A stretch of 57,257 bases of DNA from a virus (Duplodnaviria > Caudoviricetes): IMG/VR virus record IMGVR_UViG_3300028806_000013, positions 1 to 57,257 of that record; one strand, written 5' to 3'. The notes under the pieces are model-generated. The model did not search any database and had not been told where the DNA came from. It was given only the letters and a program-made list of their open reading frames with translations. Positions 1,035 to 57,257 of the stretch are shown piece after piece (position 1 is the stretch's first letter; every line of letters begins with the position of its first letter). The position numbers and the translations under genes were made by a program.

Positions 1035-1239
1035 CACTTTTTAAAAATATATTTTTAATGTAGAATGATTAAATAATACTCTATTGCCCCTCTTACCTAC
1101 ATTGGAGGGGATAACCTTATTCCTTAAATGTGAAACCTCCGGCCTGGTAACACAGGCCAATAACTGCTAAGGTTCATATTCCAAATGTGTATAGAAACGC
1201 CCTGTCTTTTCATTGGGATGGGGCATCAGCTAATAACTA

Positions 1240-1268
1240 TTGACAGGACTAAAAGTATTTGATAATTT
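1240..1268 (+). promoter_or_regulatory. sigma70-like promoter inside the hairpin array
   Basis: TTGACA-N17-TAATTT with extended -10 TGn. Confidence 0.55.
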
Positions 1269-1321
1269 AATTGAACTTAATATTTTCCTAATCACCCCCT
1301 ATTTTAGGATAGGGGATAAGC

Positions 1322-1350
1322 TTGATAGAGCGGATGGAATTGGGTATATT
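1322..1350 (+). promoter_or_regulatory. sigma70-like promoter inside the hairpin array
   Basis: TTGATA-N17-TATATT. Confidence 0.5.
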
Positions 1351-1554
1351 AGAATTGTTTAAAGTATTTTACATCCTATAACCCCCGCGAGGGGGTTGAA
1401 CTAAAGTCTTCATAACTAAAAACTCCCGCCTCAGTAATGGGGCAATAGCTTTTAATTAATCATTGTAGTAATCTATAGCTGTATTATCTTACATCATCGA
1501 CCTATACGCTTTGATTCTCATATTTCAAAGAGGTGCGAATAAGCTAAAATATAT

Positions 1555-1582
1555 TTGCATTAATATTTATTTATGATAAAGT
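1555..1582 (+). promoter_or_regulatory. sigma70-like promoter inside the hairpin array
   Basis: TTGCAT-N16-TAAAGT with extended -10 TGn. Confidence 0.45.
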
Positions 1583-1782
1583 GAGTGTGTTCTTATAAAT
1601 TGGACATACGCCTCTTAGAGATGGGAGGCGAAAATCTGATAAATAGAACGTAGTATCCTAATATTTGTTACTGATACAGCCTCGAGTAGAGGCATTAACT
1701 TGTAAGTTGGATAGATAATAATATAGAATGATAACTGGATATAATAGCGGGAAAGGCAGAACGAAACCTACAGGCCGCGGAC

Positions 1783-8006: not shown

Positions 8007-8064
8007 TTAAGCATATTACATCTATCGTATCAATAGGGCTGCTCGCACTCCCTGAAAATAACAT

Positions 8065-8093
8065 TTGATAAATAAAATATATTGATGTATAGT
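8065..8093 (+). promoter_or_regulatory. sigma70-type promoter (AACATTTGAYA family)
   Basis: TTGATA-N17-TATAGT; near copy at 54459-54487. Confidence 0.65.
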
Positions 8094-11205: not shown

Positions 11206-11235
11206 TTGCCCCTATAAATATCAGCCTAAGAGCGC

Positions 11236-11348
11236 TCCTCTAAGACAATAGACAAGAATGATAAGACGTAGCCGGATTTGAACCAGCGCCCTCTTACGAA
11301 GGTATTAACCAAAATGTAATCCTATCTGCATTCTATTGCCTTAGAGGA
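11236..11348 (-). ncRNA. Y RNA (YrlA)-like tRNA-mimic RNA
   Basis: 17-bp terminal stem TCCTCTAAGGCAATAGA/TCTATTGTCTTAGAGGA; inner GATAGGA/TCTTATC stem; T-arm GCTGG-TTCAAAT-CCGGC; no acceptor stem or CCA. Confidence 0.6.
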
Positions 11349-11350
11349 AT

Positions 11351-11500
11351 TCTCTAAAGACAGAGATAAACAAAATTGATAAGATAGCGCCCCCAACGGG
11401 CTACGGGGCATCGTATAGCCCCCACATAGAATAAAACTACTGTAATCTTACAGCGGAGTTCTTAGTATCAGTATCAGGCGCTCTTTCTCCTGTATAGATT
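11351..11500 (-). ncRNA. second Yrl-like RNA unit (boundaries approximate)
   Basis: GCTGTAAGATTACA...TCTTATCAATTTTGT mirrors GCAGATAGGATTACA...TCTTATCATTCTTGT of unit 1; internal GGGCTA stems. Confidence 0.45.
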
Positions 11501-11512
11501 TCAAATAGCTCT

Positions 11513-13984: not shown

Positions 13985-14244
13985 TATACAGACTCCCCTA
14001 CAAAATCTATTCCTGTCTCTTCAGCCAAATAATCCATCCTTAATTCCCTTAGCTCTTTCACAACCCCTTTAAGATTACCGATAATCTCAATATCAAATCC
14101 TAAATCCTTTAAAAGAGGCAATTCATGTGAATTTAAATGGTCTCGTTTACAAATCTTTAACAATGCTCTAGAAGCATCGCACATAGGCATATAAACAACC
14201 GGTGTCATATTCCCACCTTGCCCACTTAAAATCAATTTATTCAT
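13984..14244 (-). CDS. hypothetical protein
   Basis: coupled ORF. Confidence 0.65.
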   Translation of the reverse strand: MNKLILSGQGGNMTPVVYMPMCDASRALLKICKRDHLNSHELPLLKDLGFDIEIIGNLKGVVKELRELRMDYLAEETGIDFVGESV

Positions 14245-14536
14245 TTTTCTTCTTCTTGATTGACACTTTATACTTAGCCCATGCGACCGGGTTCAATTGG
14301 CTTGCTTTCACTTTACCTTCAGTTATCTTTTCTATTTCTAAGGACAGACGTAAAGAAACAGCATACCTATTATGCAATGATTGACTTAGATTTCCTTGAT
14401 TGCACTTCAATAATCGAGACAAGCCCGCAGGATTTAAATTTAATAGTTTAAGTACCTTGACTAAATGTTTATTAGAATATTTACTATTCTTTTGTGCAAA
14501 TGATTCTTTTACGTAACCCATTAAAAATTTCTCCAA
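14237..14536 (-). CDS. Cro/CI-like HTH regulator
   Basis: AGLSRLLKCNQGNLSQ...LEIEKITEGKVKASQLNP Cro-like pattern; first gene after a leftward promoter. Confidence 0.75.
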   Translation of the reverse strand: MEKFLMGYVKESFAQKNSKYSNKHLVKVLKLLNLNPAGLSRLLKCNQGNLSQSLHNRYAVSLRLSLEIEKITEGKVKASQLNPVAWAKYKVSIKKKKNE

Positions 14537-14552
14537 TATTTAATTTAAATAT

Positions 14553-14580
14553 AGTATACTCAAAAAGAAATAAGTGTCAA
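14553..14580 (-). promoter_or_regulatory. sigma70-type promoter (AAACATTTGACA family)
   Basis: TTGACA-N16-TATACT. Confidence 0.55.
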
Positions 14581-14602
14581 ATGTTTTTTTGGAGAATATT
14601 TT

Positions 14603-14782
14603 ATGGATGAAAAGAAATTTGATGAACCTGTTATGCCCCCTTCTTATGCGCCAACTGAGGAACAATTACGAGCGTATATTGAACATATCAGAATTGCATA
14701 CAATCTAGAAGAAAAGAAACCCAAGTCTATTTTAGATAAATTAAGGAGCCTCTATGCCAATTGTTTCAAAAAAGAAGATTGA
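14603..14782 (+). CDS. small hypothetical protein (59 aa, below the track cutoff)
   Basis: GGAG RBS; MDEKKFDEPVMPP... Confidence 0.45.
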   Translation: MDEKKFDEPVMPPSYAPTEEQLRAYIEHIRIAYNLEEKKPKSILDKLRSLYANCFKKED

Positions 14783-47256: not shown

Positions 47257-47706
47257 TTAAAATGGTAATTCATCCGAATCATCTTCTTTAGCAGCTACTT
47301 TCGTTGCTGGCACTTCATTAGCATTAGGGTCTATAAAATCACCCATCTTAGAGCTAACAAATGTTTTCTCAGGTGTTTCGTAGAAGCTGTCTACCAATAT
47401 TCCTCTGCCATTTAGCCCCACTAAATCTTCTATATCAAAACCTTCTGGACGATTCCATTCAGGCTTTTTAACAGCTTTCAAAAGCTTATGCATCTTCCAA
47501 GCCATATTCTTGGTATGTGGGAAATAATCTGTAACGATTCCTTCATCGCCATTCTTATCTCTCACTTGAAATTTAATGGTTGTTTGAGGATTTCTATTCT
47601 TAGAATAGCCCTCAATCGCTTCTTTAACTTTAAAGAAACATTCTCCTTCAGCGCCATGGAAATTACCACTAGATGAACCATCATCGTAATTACTATACTT
47701 TGCCAC
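47257..47706 (-). CDS. ssDNA-binding protein (DUF669-like)
   Basis: acidic DDSDELPF C-terminus; follows the recombinase. Confidence 0.75.
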   Translation of the reverse strand: MAKYSNYDDGSSSGNFHGAEGECFFKVKEAIEGYSKNRNPQTTIKFQVRDKNGDEGIVTDYFPHTKNMAWKMHKLLKAVKKPEWNRPEGFDIEDLVGLNGRGILVDSFYETPEKTFVSSKMGDFIDPNANEVPATKVAAKEDDSDELPF

Positions 47707-48478
47707 TTTCTTTCTCCTTTAGCTTGGTTTCAATTCGTTCAATTAATTGCAATGCGATTTCATCGGTGCAATCATGTTTTGCATAATACTGCATAAATTT
47801 AGCGCCATCTTCTTCTGGGATATTCCATAATAAACTTACGAGCTTATTATGTGCTTCTGACGTTTTTGTCTCTACCGCTTTAATCTCACCTGTTTCTTTA
47901 TCAACCTGTTCCACCACCTCTGCATCAATATAATCTTCTTTTCCTTCCATTTCTTCATAGGCTGGTTGAGAACCTGTCATTTCAGGCCAAACCATGCGTA
48001 ATAGCTGAGATTCAGTGGTTTTTGCTATCATGCCATAGGGGTCTTGTGCCCATCTATCATTAGGCATCAAACTTCCGGCACCTTTCTTTGAATAACAGCC
48101 AAGCCATCTAGTTTCATGTGAAAATTCTCTTATCTGACTACCAACAAGTTTGCTGACAGTCATTTGACAATATTCTGGATATTCTGTTTCACCTATCATT
48201 TTAGAAGGCCCATAAATAGGAATGCTTTTACCGACATAAGTGCCACTTCTACTGGCTTGAATTCTGAATAATGTAATGCTTGGCATAATGCTATAAGTTG
48301 AACCAGACTTCCCTTTAAATTCTACAATATGATAAATCTTCAGATGCGGGTCAATCTGCCACATGTTGGCATAATTAACAACCGCTTCTACAAATTGTTT
48401 AGGAATATTCCTATAGATATCAATTAATAATTCCGGGGTGACTTCATACTTTTTGATTTCGTTGCTCATCTTTTCCAT
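47693..48478 (-). CDS. bet: Bet/RecT-family single-strand annealing recombinase
   Basis: IDPHLKIYHIV, RIQASRSG.YVG, WAQDPYGMIAKTTESQLLR. Confidence 0.85.
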   Translation of the reverse strand: MEKMSNEIKKYEVTPELLIDIYRNIPKQFVEAVVNYANMWQIDPHLKIYHIVEFKGKSGSTYSIMPSITLFRIQASRSGTYVGKSIPIYGPSKMIGETEYPEYCQMTVSKLVGSQIREFSHETRWLGCYSKKGAGSLMPNDRWAQDPYGMIAKTTESQLLRMVWPEMTGSQPAYEEMEGKEDYIDAEVVEQVDKETGEIKAVETKTSEAHNKLVSLLWNIPEEDGAKFMQYYAKHDCTDEIALQLIERIETKLKEKESGKV

Positions 48479-48725
48479 CCTCTAGCTCACATTGTTGTTG
48501 TTCATGTTCTAATTGTTGCCATTCATGATTATCTTCTCTTTTATTCCATACTTCAATAGCTAGCTCAGGTTCAATTACTGTTTTCATATTAGCTGGGCAG
48601 TTAGTGCATCTTATTTTATTCAGACATTTTCTACCTTCACCTTCTTTGGTTGTTTTAAAAAAAGCTACATGTCCGCAGAATGGACATTTCTTAAGTTTAT
48701 TACTTATATCTCGATTATCATTCAT
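48444..48725 (-). CDS. Lar-family restriction alleviation protein
   Basis: LKKCPFCG...IRCTNC...AIEVWNKR. Confidence 0.8.
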   Translation of the reverse strand: MNDNRDISNKLKKCPFCGHVAFFKTTKEGEGRKCLNKIRCTNCPANMKTVIEPELAIEVWNKREDNHEWQQLEHEQQQCELEDGKDEQRNQKV

Positions 48726-49915: not shown

Positions 49916-50530
49916 GTGACGTGCGAGATAGATAAAATTGGGATTACCGATGGAATATATCTTCTTTCTGCCATTAGATCATCGTCAAATGAAATTTTAG
50001 AATCTGCGCTTGGCAGCCCTGAGTCAGAAAGAAAAGAAAATTACTATTTGTTACAGAATCATATTAAGAAGTTGATTTCAACGAGTGATGGTAATGAAAT
50101 TATAGGGATAATGGAGGATTTGGCACTTTCTGAGTGTGAAGAATTTCTTTTATTTACCTGCAATTCTTATAAATTTGATTATAAAATAACAGCTCACATA
50201 AAGGATGAGCTCAGAAAACTTATCCCCAAGTTTTCACTCTCTAGGATATTTTCATTCATTTGGGCTGCCGTCAAAAACGCTATCTTATTTTCCTCTCTGA
50301 AAGAATGTAAAAATCAACAACATGCGATGAATACCATTATTTTAAATGTTGTTAAATATTCTCAAAACAAATCTTTCACCAAGGAATTTGAAAGACCAAC
50401 TAAGCTTCCACGAAGCTCTCTTAGCATTGTTATTTATGAAGAAATATTAGGGATTGGTGATTTTGGTTTCTTAAATAACATTTTTAGTATTCCGCTTTCA
50501 TTTTTTGATGAGTTAGGTAGATATGAGTAA
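49916..50530 (+). CDS. hypothetical protein
   Basis: 204-aa ORF coupled to the HTH gene. Confidence 0.65.
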   Translation: MTCEIDKIGITDGIYLLSAIRSSSNEILESALGSPESERKENYYLLQNHIKKLISTSDGNEIIGIMEDLALSECEEFLLFTCNSYKFDYKITAHIKDELRKLIPKFSLSRIFSFIWAAVKNAILFSSLKECKNQQHAMNTIILNVVKYSQNKSFTKEFERPTKLPRSSLSIVIYEEILGIGDFGFLNNIFSIPLSFFDELGRYE

Positions 50531-50951
50531 GAAAATGGACAAATATAGGAAGAAGCGCGGAGCTAGTGGCTTTATAAAAATTCCTCACTTTGTTTGCAAC
50601 AGTGAGGAATTTTGTAATCTTTCTGTATTTGCTCTTAAACTTCTTATCGATTTAATGTCTCAGTACAACGGGTTTAACAACGGTTCTCTTACTATTTGCT
50701 GGCAAGTTATGACAAAGAGGGGATGGAAATCCAAAGATACGCTTTACAAAGCTAAGGATGAATTGTTGCTAGGTAGATGGATTGCGATAACAAGAGTAGG
50801 GAATCGAAAGAAGACGTCCCTTTATGCTTTGACGACTTACTCCGTCAACGAGGATTTAAAAAAGGTTTATGACTTTGGAGTTTCGTCTACCGATGCACCC
50901 GCTCATAGTTGGCACAATGGCCTACGTGGTGGCTCGGCAAACTTTGAGTAG
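50523..50951 (+). CDS. winged-HTH protein, candidate replication initiator
   Basis: FIKIPH..NSEEF..LS..ALKLLIDL..QYNGFNNGSL...SKDTLYKAKDELL...SLYALT. Confidence 0.6.
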   Translation: MSKKMDKYRKKRGASGFIKIPHFVCNSEEFCNLSVFALKLLIDLMSQYNGFNNGSLTICWQVMTKRGWKSKDTLYKAKDELLLGRWIAITRVGNRKKTSLYALTTYSVNEDLKKVYDFGVSSTDAPAHSWHNGLRGGSANFE

Positions 50952-50969
50952 ATACTGGTATATATATAC

Positions 50970-51093
50970 GGTACGCCAGGCGGGGCAAATAAATGACGAA
51001 AAGTGGCTATTTGGCCCGCCAGGCGGGCCAAATAAAAACCATTTAGCCCGCCTGGCGGGCTAAATAATATGGATTTAGCCCGCCAGGCGTACC
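50970..51093. repeat. four phased CGCCWGGCG palindromes (candidate origin iterons)
   Basis: cores start at 50974, 51017, 51049 and 51081; the two inner copies extend to 25-27-bp palindromes; the outer copies are inverted repeats of each other. Confidence 0.85.
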
Positions 51094-54246: not shown

Positions 54247-54451
54247 GGAAGTCCTAAGATTATTCCTCAGGAATATATTATTGATTGAAAGTATAGCTTC
54301 TATCATAATAGCTATCATCTGTTTGAATCATCACATTATGGATTGCCCTAATCTGGATGAATGGTCATGGTATCGGGTAGGGTCATATCTTTTATTGATG
54401 TATTCCTATAGTGCATTCTGTAAATGGCGAAAAAGAAAAAAATATTATTAA
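54176..54451 (+). CDS. small membrane protein (start probably ATG 54230)
   Basis: two hydrophobic segments; AAGGA RBS. Confidence 0.5.
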   Translation: MEIEMQLSCMPMWLSRTTMNDQFEEVLRLFLRNILLIESIASIIIAIICLNHHIMDCPNLDEWSWYRVGSYLLLMYSYSAFCKWRKRKKYY

Positions 54452-54458
54452 AAAACAT

Positions 54459-54487
54459 TTGACAAGATGAAATATTAGATGTATAGT
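54459..54487 (+). promoter_or_regulatory. sigma70-type promoter driving the operon containing the ProQ/FinO gene
   Basis: TTGACA-N17-TATAGT. Confidence 0.7.
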
Positions 54488-56476: not shown

Positions 56477-56617
56477 ATGGAATGCATAATCTCAAAACAA
56501 CTGAGTACCACAAACCCTCAAAGGGCTGGTGGAATTGCAAGAGCAGAGAAACTATCACCTTTCAAAAGAAGGCAAATAGCTAAGAAAGCGGCAAATGCGC
56601 GATGGGGTAATGAATGA
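56477..56617 (+). CDS. 46-aa basic protein with GGxARAxKLS...IAKKAAxARW motif
   Basis: manual translation MECIISKQLSTTNPQRAGGIARAEKLSPFKRRQIAKKAANARWGNE; ATGA-coupled to the next gene. Confidence 0.7.
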   Translation: MECIISKQLSTTNPQRAGGIARAEKLSPFKRRQIAKKAANARWGNE

Positions 56618-56841
56618 ATAAAGTCCTATGTGACCAATGTGAGAATGATTTAAGTACGACTGGCAATTCGGTAGATTGGTCTCTTACTTTAAGAAATAGA
56701 CAGATACCAACGTGGGATGCTTTTAAAAAAGGTGGTGCTGTCACAGATATGATGATATCTCCTGAGCTTAAGAAGGATTTAAACTTTTGTGGGTTAGCGT
56801 GCTTAAATAAGTGGATGAATAGGGATAAAACACAATCTTGA
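56614..56841 (+). CDS. Cys-containing hypothetical protein
   Basis: CDQC...FCGLACL. Confidence 0.65.
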   Translation: MNKVLCDQCENDLSTTGNSVDWSLTLRNRQIPTWDAFKKGGAVTDMMISPELKKDLNFCGLACLNKWMNRDKTQS

Positions 56842-56898: not shown

Positions 56899-56931
56899 CC
56901 CCCTTGTTTTCGTTTACAAGGGGGATTAACT
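56899..56931 (+). ncRNA. outlying tenth hairpin + tail unit
   Basis: CCCCCTTGT/ACAAGGGGG stem followed by ATTAACT, identical to the tail of array unit 9. Confidence 0.5.
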
Positions 56932-57011: not shown

Positions 57012-57125
57012 CTAGCTGCGTACGAACTTCCCATAAGACCAAATCACCCAAATGATAACTGGCAGACTCCAAAGAAGTGCAACTAATCCATTCTTTATTT
57101 CTGCTATGACTTTAGCTTTGTTCAT
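57012..57125 (-). CDS. 37-aa hydrophobic protein
   Basis: GAGGAGG RBS; MNKAKVIAEIKNGLVALLWSLPVIIWVIWS... Confidence 0.45.
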   Translation of the reverse strand: MNKAKVIAEIKNGLVALLWSLPVIIWVIWSYGKFVRS

Positions 57126-57257
57126 GCTTGTTCCTCCTCTATTTCTTCTACATCCATTACCTGGCTCGATATTCCGGCGACCATATACTCGTCAAAACCA
57201 TTTTCCTCGTACAATTCGCTTCTATTTTGCCGATAAGCTTTCTCTTTTGCTTCATCT

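Follow-up and report, generated by a model that had tools for sequence, protein, structure and literature searches.

Introduction

T4-type phages carry composite cassettes known as PeSLs, in which a stem-loop with G-T pairs and runs of G or C is joined to a sigma70 promoter, and one such stem-loop terminated transcription as well as rrnB T1, according to the portions of the two reports available to us (PMC2839356, PMC4122927). Here we describe an array of short GC-rich hairpins, each followed by a seven-base tail, in a gap without open reading frames (ORFs) at positions 1015-1782 of IMGVR_UViG_3300028806_000013, a 57,257-bp phage record from the IMG/VR virus collection that was analysed over its whole length (the window). 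Like the PeSLs described in those portions, the array has stem-loops with G/C runs and G-T pairs in an AT-rich stretch beside predicted sigma70-like promoters, and many copies in the same orientation in an early region; for both, a role in stopping transcription from upstream and starting it anew is proposed. The differences, again as far as those portions go, are several. PeSLs are found flanking ORFs, with a Shine-Dalgarno sequence and start codon at their end, whereas in the array nine units succeed one another without an intervening gene; the similarity among PeSL copies suffices for recombination, whereas leave-one-out profiles do not recover the array units; and PeSL stems run from polyG to polyC, those of the array from C to G. 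No fixed 7-nt tail is described there for PeSLs, and the present phage is not T4-like.

Other hairpin-based signals provide further points of comparison. A closing hairpin acts on the transcription elongation complex at a distance of 7-9 nt (PMC8060035, in the part accessible to us). With intrinsic terminators and pause sites the array shares a GC-rich stem with a G/C base, GNRA loops, a conserved point 6-7 nt 3' of the stem, and a solitary tenth unit at a convergent operon end; it differs in that the tail is A-rich and then C-U, with no U tract, and in that nine units precede an operon instead of following it. Class 1 CRISPR repeats and RNA anti-CRISPRs (Racrs) likewise combine a hairpin with a short conserved single-stranded handle, are phage-borne and occur near promoters, solitary repeat units often lying just 3' of one (PMC10651486, as far as the available text goes); the array stems, in contrast, are not copies of one repeat, have no significant Rfam CRISPR-DR match and are irregularly spaced. 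At the G4 origin (G4ori), primer synthesis begins at the T of a CTG located 3' of stem-loops, and the array also presents hairpins with a 3' C-T-containing triplet on one DNA strand. G4ori, however, has three long stem-loops and a single CTG in the accessible description (PMC6783573), whereas the present phage has ten short stems; every one has a C-T of its own, and the third base varies.

We find that the array is real, statistically solid, strand-specific and outside any curated family, and that it is known from one genome only. It most likely represents terminator/promoter punctuation of a new variety, comparable to the PeSLs of T4-type phages.

Hairpins with a conserved 3' tail

Under translation table 11, table 4 or with TAG read as Q, the gap contains no ORF, and no frame opens with other codes; between the units there is one 40-aa frame and otherwise no ORF of at least 40 aa in any code tried. 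The initial annotation had placed nine stems in this non-coding DNA. A strict scan for hairpins (stem of at least 5 pairs with G-T allowed, at least 4 G-C pairs, loop of 3-12) returned eight distinct GC-rich hairpins on the + strand (H1-H6, H8 and H9), all within 641 bp, which fold at -9.3 to -15.2 kcal/mol with z-scores of -1.9 to -5.0. Over the region 1070-1710, 1000 dinucleotide shuffles yielded only 0.59 ± 0.71 such hairpins, with a maximum of 4 and none reaching 8. Because the stems differ in length and sequence and could not be aligned by MAFFT, we also used a descriptor of hairpin plus tail, looser than the strict scan and likewise run with shuffled controls: it matched seven times in the array, compared with 0.067 for shuffled sequence (at most 2), and no more than three times per 700 bp on any other strand of the phage or of five fetched phage records. 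The comparison with shuffled DNA that the initial annotation had proposed as a check thus came out clearly in favour of the array.

The first three units are H1 (1087-1117), a CCCCTCT/GGAGGGG hairpin at 1087-1110 with the tail ATAACCT (-12.2 kcal/mol, z -2.46; -9.9 on the - strand); H2 (1141-1165), a GGCCTG/CAGGCC hairpin at 1141-1158 with the loop GTAACA and the tail AATAACT (-12.8 kcal/mol, z -3.91); and H3 (1199-1231), a 10-pair hairpin at 1199-1224 with four G-U pairs and the tail ATCAGCT (-15.2 kcal/mol on the + strand, -9.3 on the -). H4 (1296-1322) pairs CCCCTATT with GATAGGGG at 1296-1315, carries the tail ATAAGCT and is the sole unit more stable on the - strand. H5 (1379-1402; -13.8 kcal/mol, z -2.77) reads CCCCC-GCGA-GGGGG, with a maximal stem at 1379-1398, a G/C core at 1382-1395 and the tail TTGAACT counted from the G run, and H6 (1428-1450) consists of a GCCTCA-GTAA-TGGGGC hairpin at 1428-1443, the tail AATAGCT and then TTTT. 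Towards the right end of the gap lie H8 (1609-1637), a 9-pair hairpin at 1609-1630 with a GAGA loop and the tail AAAATCT (-13.9 kcal/mol, z -5.01), and H9 (1679-1700), a GCCTC-GAGTA-GAGGC hairpin at 1679-1693 with the tail ATTAACT (-9.3 kcal/mol, z -4.34). The remaining member of the original nine, unit 7 (1505-1544), is doubtful: its weak A/U-rich stem (approximately 1505-1535, with AATAAGCT) folds at only -5.5 kcal/mol (z -0.54), 58 of 200 shuffles fold equally well, and its tail (1538-1544) is one base out of register. The ORF-free gap and eight of the nine stems therefore stand, but unit 7 is not convincing as a hairpin. The spacing from stem end to stem end is irregular, at 45-97 nt.

The strict scan also found a copy at the other end of the window. 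This tenth unit, H10 (56899-56931, + strand; -17.0 kcal/mol, z -3.34), pairs CCCCCTTGT with ACAAGGGGG, has the same build as the array units and the same tail as H9, ATTAACT. The stop of the last rightward gene (56614-56841) precedes it by 57 nt, and it lies 87 nt past that of a leftward gene of 37 codons (57125-57012), at the meeting point of two convergent operons. With H10 included, nine of the ten units have at least four G-C pairs and fold at -9.3 to -17.0 kcal/mol (z -1.9 to -5.0), unit 7 failing on these counts. Imperfect direct repeats of 12-18 nt flank H8 (1591-1608/1635-1652), H2 (1118-1131/1177-1188) and H10 (56870-56882/56940-56952), with p of 0.007-0.05 relative to shuffles, and could reflect either duplicated units or a leader word in common, CTTCAT..TGAAA.

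The seven-base tails are present in the sequence exactly as first listed. Across the ten units they conform to A-W-W-A-N-C-T, with A at +1 in nine, A at +4 in all ten, and C at +6 and T at +7 in nine each. CT follows seven of the eight hairpins at the same offset, for which p is about 4e-8 given a CT frequency of 0.066 in the region, and about 8e-6 after correction for the 192 possible choices of dinucleotide and offset. The initial claim that CT lies at one distance from every stem holds for these seven, but H5 has its CT at +6/+7 only when the G run is taken as the end of the stem, the maximal stem taking two of the tail bases, and in unit 7 it is one base off.

Strand asymmetry and the possibility of single-stranded DNA signals

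Nine of the ten units fold more stably as + strand RNA than as - strand RNA, H4 being the exception. The stems contain ten G-U pairs on the + strand, three of the four tetraloops are GNRA (GCGA in H5, GTAA in H6 and GAGA in H8), and in nine of the ten stems the 5' arm is pyrimidine-rich and the 3' arm purine-rich, giving a loose SSCCY...RGGSS pattern. The GNRA loops and the G-U pairs had both been pointed out in the initial annotation. The stems had also been called sequence-diverse, which is mostly so, but they do share this polarity and the loose consensus. Strand bias, G-U pairs, GNRA loops and arm polarity fit RNA or single-stranded + strand DNA, not a duplex site.

The units could accordingly be read in DNA, as hairpins which single-stranded DNA-binding protein leaves free and which place a primase at the adjoining C-T in the manner of G4, the gap then being an origin or a zone of lagging-strand starts beside an A/T-only palindrome at 1041-1058. 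The constant distance of 6-7 nt from each stem to a C-T on its 3' side would suit such a role, as would the minimum of the cumulative GC skew in the first 2 kb, and G-T pairs and GNRA-type loops are tolerated in DNA hairpins too. We nevertheless consider it improbable. The base after the CT varies (T in six units, G in two and A in two), so that a G4-like CTG occurs in only two of the ten, whereas primase triplets are, to our knowledge, fixed; known single-strand initiation (ssi) signals have far longer stems than those of the array; the GC skew here tracks gene direction; and DnaA-box-like words are not concentrated in the gap. Protein scans (58 non-structural ORFs against PHROGs, 20 ORFs against Pfam and 10 neighbouring ORFs against PADLOC) recognised no primase, nor any RNA polymerase, reverse transcriptase, Cas6-like nuclease or recombinase. 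There is also a better candidate replication origin at 51008-51089, directly 3' of a weak DnaD-like loader gene (50523-50951), where nested, near-identical GC palindromes are found (TATTTGGCCCGC-cag-GCGGGCCAAATA and two copies of the ATTTAGCCCGCC type).

The A/T-only palindrome itself, TTAAAAATATATTTTTAA, is perfect over 18 bp and lies just past the -35 of a leftward promoter-like site (1034-1006), on the side facing the array, where it could serve as an operator or for unwinding.

The units are not sequence repeats

As the initial annotation had anticipated, repeat finders miss the array: TRF gave no rows at a score of 30, and a second repeat finder detected no direct-repeat family over the hairpins. 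Profile searches with nhmmer in which each unit was left out in turn recovered the missing unit at E < 0.1 in none of ten cases (the best was unit 10, E 0.12), and searches with single units also gave no significant similarity. With a loose aligner, units 3 and 10 were reciprocal best windows among about 3,800, although by a narrow margin (38 vs 34-35), and we do not claim common descent. Rfam gave nothing significant on 900-1900 at E up to 10, and the whole window had no match at gathering scores.

These results bear on two alternatives raised at the outset. One is that the units mimic CRISPR repeats, as Racrs or other solitary repeat units or as a degenerate mini-array. H1 and H4 do read CCCC...GGGGATAA, an ending that we take to resemble that of type I-E repeats. 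The best Rfam CRISPR-DR hits, however, reached only 18 and 17.5 bits where the gathering score is 50 (E 2.3 and 4.3), and H5 is all that either covers; moreover, the stems differ from one another, whereas a mimic is a copy of a single host repeat, the units are irregularly spaced and no cas genes accompany the array. We therefore regard mimicry as very unlikely. A CRISPR array or repeat in the ordinary sense was also rejected, there being no near-identical, regular repeats and, among the Rfam models compared, no significant CRISPR-DR match.

The other alternative was a decoy or antitoxin-like RNA directed at the RNase of a type III toxin-antitoxin system. Known antitoxin RNAs of this type are tandem, near-identical sequence repeats, and the idea of a repeated small structured RNA on a phage is all that speaks for one here. 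With no tandem repeat found by TRF, no ToxN- or AbiQ-like gene nearby and no PADLOC match in the ten flanking ORFs, this is the most remote of the explanations that we weighed, and a ToxI-like RNA was rejected on the same results.

Hairpins of conserved structure and variable sequence, all in one orientation and with a short conserved 3' flank, might also be sites for an enzyme that reads folded DNA: attC-like sites, REP/RAYT or IS200-type ends, or relaxase-type nick sites, with a hairpin and, about 7-8 nt 3' of it, a nick. Structure-conserved hairpins with a short 3' flank are indeed the logic of attC arrays and of HUH-enzyme sites. An attC site, however, is an imperfect hairpin of 57-141 bp with RYYYAAC/GTTRRRY cores that is recognised by an integron integrase. 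The array stems, at 15-27 nt, fall far short of this length and have no R'/R'' core words in their flanks, the copies are not sequence repeats, and no tyrosine recombinase, HUH/Y1 transposase or relaxase was recognised among the ORFs scanned. Integron attC sites were accordingly rejected, and the wider class of hairpin-reading DNA enzymes is very unlikely as an explanation. A lambda-type nut site consists of a boxA word and a boxB hairpin with a 5-pair stem and a GNRNA loop; H9 is alone in combining a 5-pair stem with a GAGTA loop, the units share no boxA-like word, and this candidate was also set aside.

Promoter-like sites between the hairpins

Sigma70-like sites had been predicted in the three longest spacers, and we find them at 1240, 1322 and 1554 on the + strand. 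The first, TTGACA-17-TAATTT (1240-1268, score 10.4), is preceded by AATAACTATTGACA, which resembles the phage's strong-promoter consensus; the second is TTGATA-17-TATATT (1322-1350, score 10.4); and the third, by our reading TTTGCA-17-TAAAGT (1554-1582, score 7.9), has a TG one base 5' of the -10. A weak site is predicted at 1396, and TTGTAA-18-TAGAAT (1700-1729) lies ahead of the first rightward gene, ORF149 (1783-2232, ATG at 1783). The sites at threshold thus come after units 3, 4, 5, 7 and 9, and within the gap there are five such matches on the + strand and none on the -; CTGATA-17-TAATAT, after H8, is below threshold. The array is bounded on the left by a strong leftward promoter-like site, TTGACA-17-TATTAT (1006-1034, - strand, score 13.2), for the LPD29-domain gene, whose ATG is at 966 with AGGAG at 979-975.

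Three of these promoter-like sequences begin within the hairpin tails. The -35-like hexamers TTGATA, CTGATA and TTGTAA begin at tail position 6-7 of units 4, 8 and 9, and in H4 and H9 the last T of the tail is the first base of the hexamer (TTGATA, 1322-1327; TTGTAA, 1700-1705). After units 3 and 7 the distance is greater, TTGACA starting 16 nt and TTGCAT 18 nt downstream. This junction of CT with the -35 in units 4, 8 and 9 and the tenth unit at 56899-56931 are both additions to what the initial annotation had described.

The 1240 site also has AATAAC-N2-TTGACA in common with the strongest promoter-like sites of the phage, which read AAAAAACATTTGACA at 54459, 14580(-) and 48796(-). Those at 54445-54487 (+), 14594-14553 (-), 48810-48767 (-) and 8051-8093 (+) follow an extended consensus, AAAAAACATTTGACA-N16-17-TATAnT, which points to a group of early promoters that have an A-tract UP element.

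Transcription punctuation as the favoured reading

The gap separates the leftward LPD29 operon from the rightward operon that begins at 1783, and we propose that it is a punctuation zone acting on + strand RNA made by the host polymerase. The build of the units would be that of an intrinsic-terminator hairpin, with 5-10 pairs, G/C at the base, an arm rich in pyrimidines on the 5' side and one rich in purines on the 3' side, often a GNRA loop, and with A-W-W-A-N-C-U in place of the usual U tract. The conserved C-U, 6-7 nt 3' of the stem, would sit at the margin of the range over which closure of a hairpin affects the elongation complex, and the five A/U-rich bases ahead of it would make for a weak RNA-DNA hybrid. 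Because of this distance and this weak hybrid, the units can be read as leaky signals to stop or pause rightward transcription. Together with sigma70-like promoters after units 3, 4, 7 and 9, and perhaps 8, they would form a chain of attenuator/promoter cassettes that blocks read-through on the + strand, restarts transcription for the 1783 operon and releases short hairpin-ended RNAs of roughly 45-170 nt; H10 would likewise block read-through where two operons converge. From the sequence we infer transcription through the region, active promoters and a polymerase that halts or pauses at the C-U.

Two observations lean towards transcription punctuation, namely the place of H10, where a terminator would be expected between convergent operon ends, and the run of the conserved CT into a -35-like hexamer in units 4, 8 and 9. 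The reading further draws on a hairpin density far in excess of shuffles, the + strand signs, the likeness of the 1240 site to the strongest promoter-like sites, the confinement of threshold matches in the gap to the + strand, and the PeSL precedent in T4-type phages. In this specific form, as U-poor, leaky stop or pause hairpins interleaved with sigma70-like promoters, the proposal is tentative, though we hold it to be more probable than any of its rivals.

A number of results weigh against it. The units have the GC-rich, G/C-based hairpin of an intrinsic terminator and lack its U-rich 3' tract: nine of the ten hairpins are followed by no U tract, and a terminator scan calls only H6 within the array. 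The absence of U tracts had been part of the original description, and it holds for the array at large but not for H6, which has UUUU at +7 to +10. Hairpins with T-richer tails occur at other operon ends of the phage, so the host polymerase probably uses ordinary terminators. H10 lies between convergent gene ends, and the nine array units upstream of an operon. The promoter-like sites are only weakly in excess over shuffles, at 6 vs 4.7 ± 2.1 in a first scan and 5 vs 2.2 ± 1.5 in a second, in which 18 of 300 shuffles had as many; at a high threshold there are 2 against 0.26 (a count reached by 8 of 300 shuffles). The scans turned up no good promoter before units 1-3, where the best is TTGTCA-16-TATTTT with a score of 7.5, or after units 1, 2 and 6. 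Finally, nine units without genes seem to exceed any apparent need for insulation, and a tail with fixed positions (A+1, A+4, C+6 and T+7) goes beyond what a weak hybrid needs and hints at recognition by a protein. Punctuation thus leaves the fixed tail and the nine gene-less copies not fully explained.

It is on these two points that a cassette of trans-acting small RNAs or decoys, close to what the initial annotation had inferred, has its appeal. Each RNA would have some 20 nt of variable sequence at its 5' side and a common hairpin-AWWANCU module, bound or cut by one protein, be it a processing nuclease, a chaperone or a host defence sensor. A position-specific tail after unrelated stems suggests a single reader of structure and sequence, dosage or titration fits nine copies better than insulation does, and the units bear the + strand RNA signals described above; by our own reading, the predicted starts of the 1240, 1322 and 1554 sites fall about 20-24 nt ahead of H4, H5 and H8. 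Set against this, no partner gene was recognised in the protein scans (no nuclease, Cas6-like, Hfq-like or toxin match), the spacers are not significantly complementary to any other part of the phage (best E 0.14) and hence no antisense targets there, units 2, 6 and 9 are too short to have a promoter of their own, and promoters are not significantly enriched. We regard such a cassette as possible but doubtful.

Somewhat less likely again is a fuller version, in which the array is a locus for small RNAs with different bodies and one 3' module, a GC hairpin plus AWWANCU, that a single protein reads through its shape and seven bases. This would be a CRISPR-independent "hairpin-and-handle" system, serving either for the processing and loading of guide-like RNAs or, at an early stage of infection, for flooding and blinding an RNA-binding factor of host defence or decay, and the solitary tenth copy would be this module serving as the 3' end of an mRNA. 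Overall, the initial observation is confirmed, and the interpretation placed on it is partly supported.

The phage and its relatives

The record is classed as linear, with a CheckV completeness of 100%. Its GC content is 0.40 overall and about 0.36 in the array region. Words from the phage are present in 20 listed DNA runs, every one labelled peat metagenome, and no RNA run is among the listed holders. The phage is tailed, with genes for TerL, a portal and a baseplate, and also encodes a RecT-like annealing protein, the weak DnaD-like loader and resolvase-like, Lar-like and repressor-like proteins; the majority of the remaining ORFs have no family. A leftward gene leaves the window at its left end (1-108, - strand, from 108), and an open frame that enters at the right end stops at 57122 (57122-57256). 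Because leftward frames run off one end and enter from the other, the record seems to be cut inside a gene, and the molecule to be circular or circularly permuted rather than to have its true ends here.

A repressor-like gene (phrog_35, E 7e-06) is found in 14237-14660, behind a strong leftward promoter-like site (14580-14553) and facing small rightward ORFs, an arrangement that looks like a genetic switch. Together with the Lar-like (48444-48725) and RecT-like (47693-48478) genes, this switch-like region suggests a temperate or lambdoid-style layout. In another ORF-free gap (11206-11512), a stretch on the - strand at 11262-11300 resembles the 3' half of a tRNA, with a GCTGG-TTCAAAT-CCGGC T-arm and seven acceptor-like bases. 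It could be the remnant of an attachment site; ARAGORN called no tRNA anywhere in the window, and no integrase was recognised in the 282-aa ORF that adjoins the stretch.

A search of 50,697 phage records with 1000-1800 (blastn) gave no match, and among viral contigs no relative was found for the LPD29 protein, for ORF149 or for a 523-aa protein. TerL matched 14 loci in viral contigs at 31-51% identity, and five whole records were compared. The initial annotation had looked to related phages for an analogous array. None was seen, however: in the three low-GC TerL relatives (G001, G002 and G005) the large gaps hold no hairpin cluster, and no strand of the five records has more than three descriptor matches in 700 bp.

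In ENA and Logan, ORF149 has only two homologues (P0002 and P0003), 63 and 61% identical, one of them on a 57.7-kb Logan contig. Both are near-identical to it over the last 60 or so residues and diverged over the first 90, a mosaic pattern. A protein atlas points to DUF5681 for ORF149 (score 0.94), by features only, which we take as a lead. A metagenome scan with the ORF149 alignment found only a 1207-bp contig carrying a 100%-identical copy, and Logan contigs from four runs have identical letters wherever they cover 700-2200, offering no natural variants for an analysis of covariation.

A genome scan with TerL gave four partial matches in Planctomycete metagenome-assembled genomes (L033-L036; 61-63% GC), covering the N-terminal half to three-fifths of the protein (residues 6-324 at most) at 43-55% identity. 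These may be prophage remnants or genes like those of gene transfer agents, and are unrelated to the phage's host. The four genomes are not credible as hosts given their GC content against 40% for the phage, and the tRNA-like word is absent from these genomes.

Discussion

If the units are stop or pause signals that work without a U tract, they would provide a natural and compact set of ten variants with which to test what, beyond the U tract, allows a hairpin to halt a bacterial polymerase, and the terminator/promoter cassettes of T4-type phages would be matched by those of a soil phage that is uncultured and unrelated to them. If they are instead small RNAs with a shared handle read by a protein, the array would be a new kind of phage RNA locus. 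Under either reading, arrays defined by structure and a short tail, unseen by repeat finders, exist in the non-coding DNA of phages.

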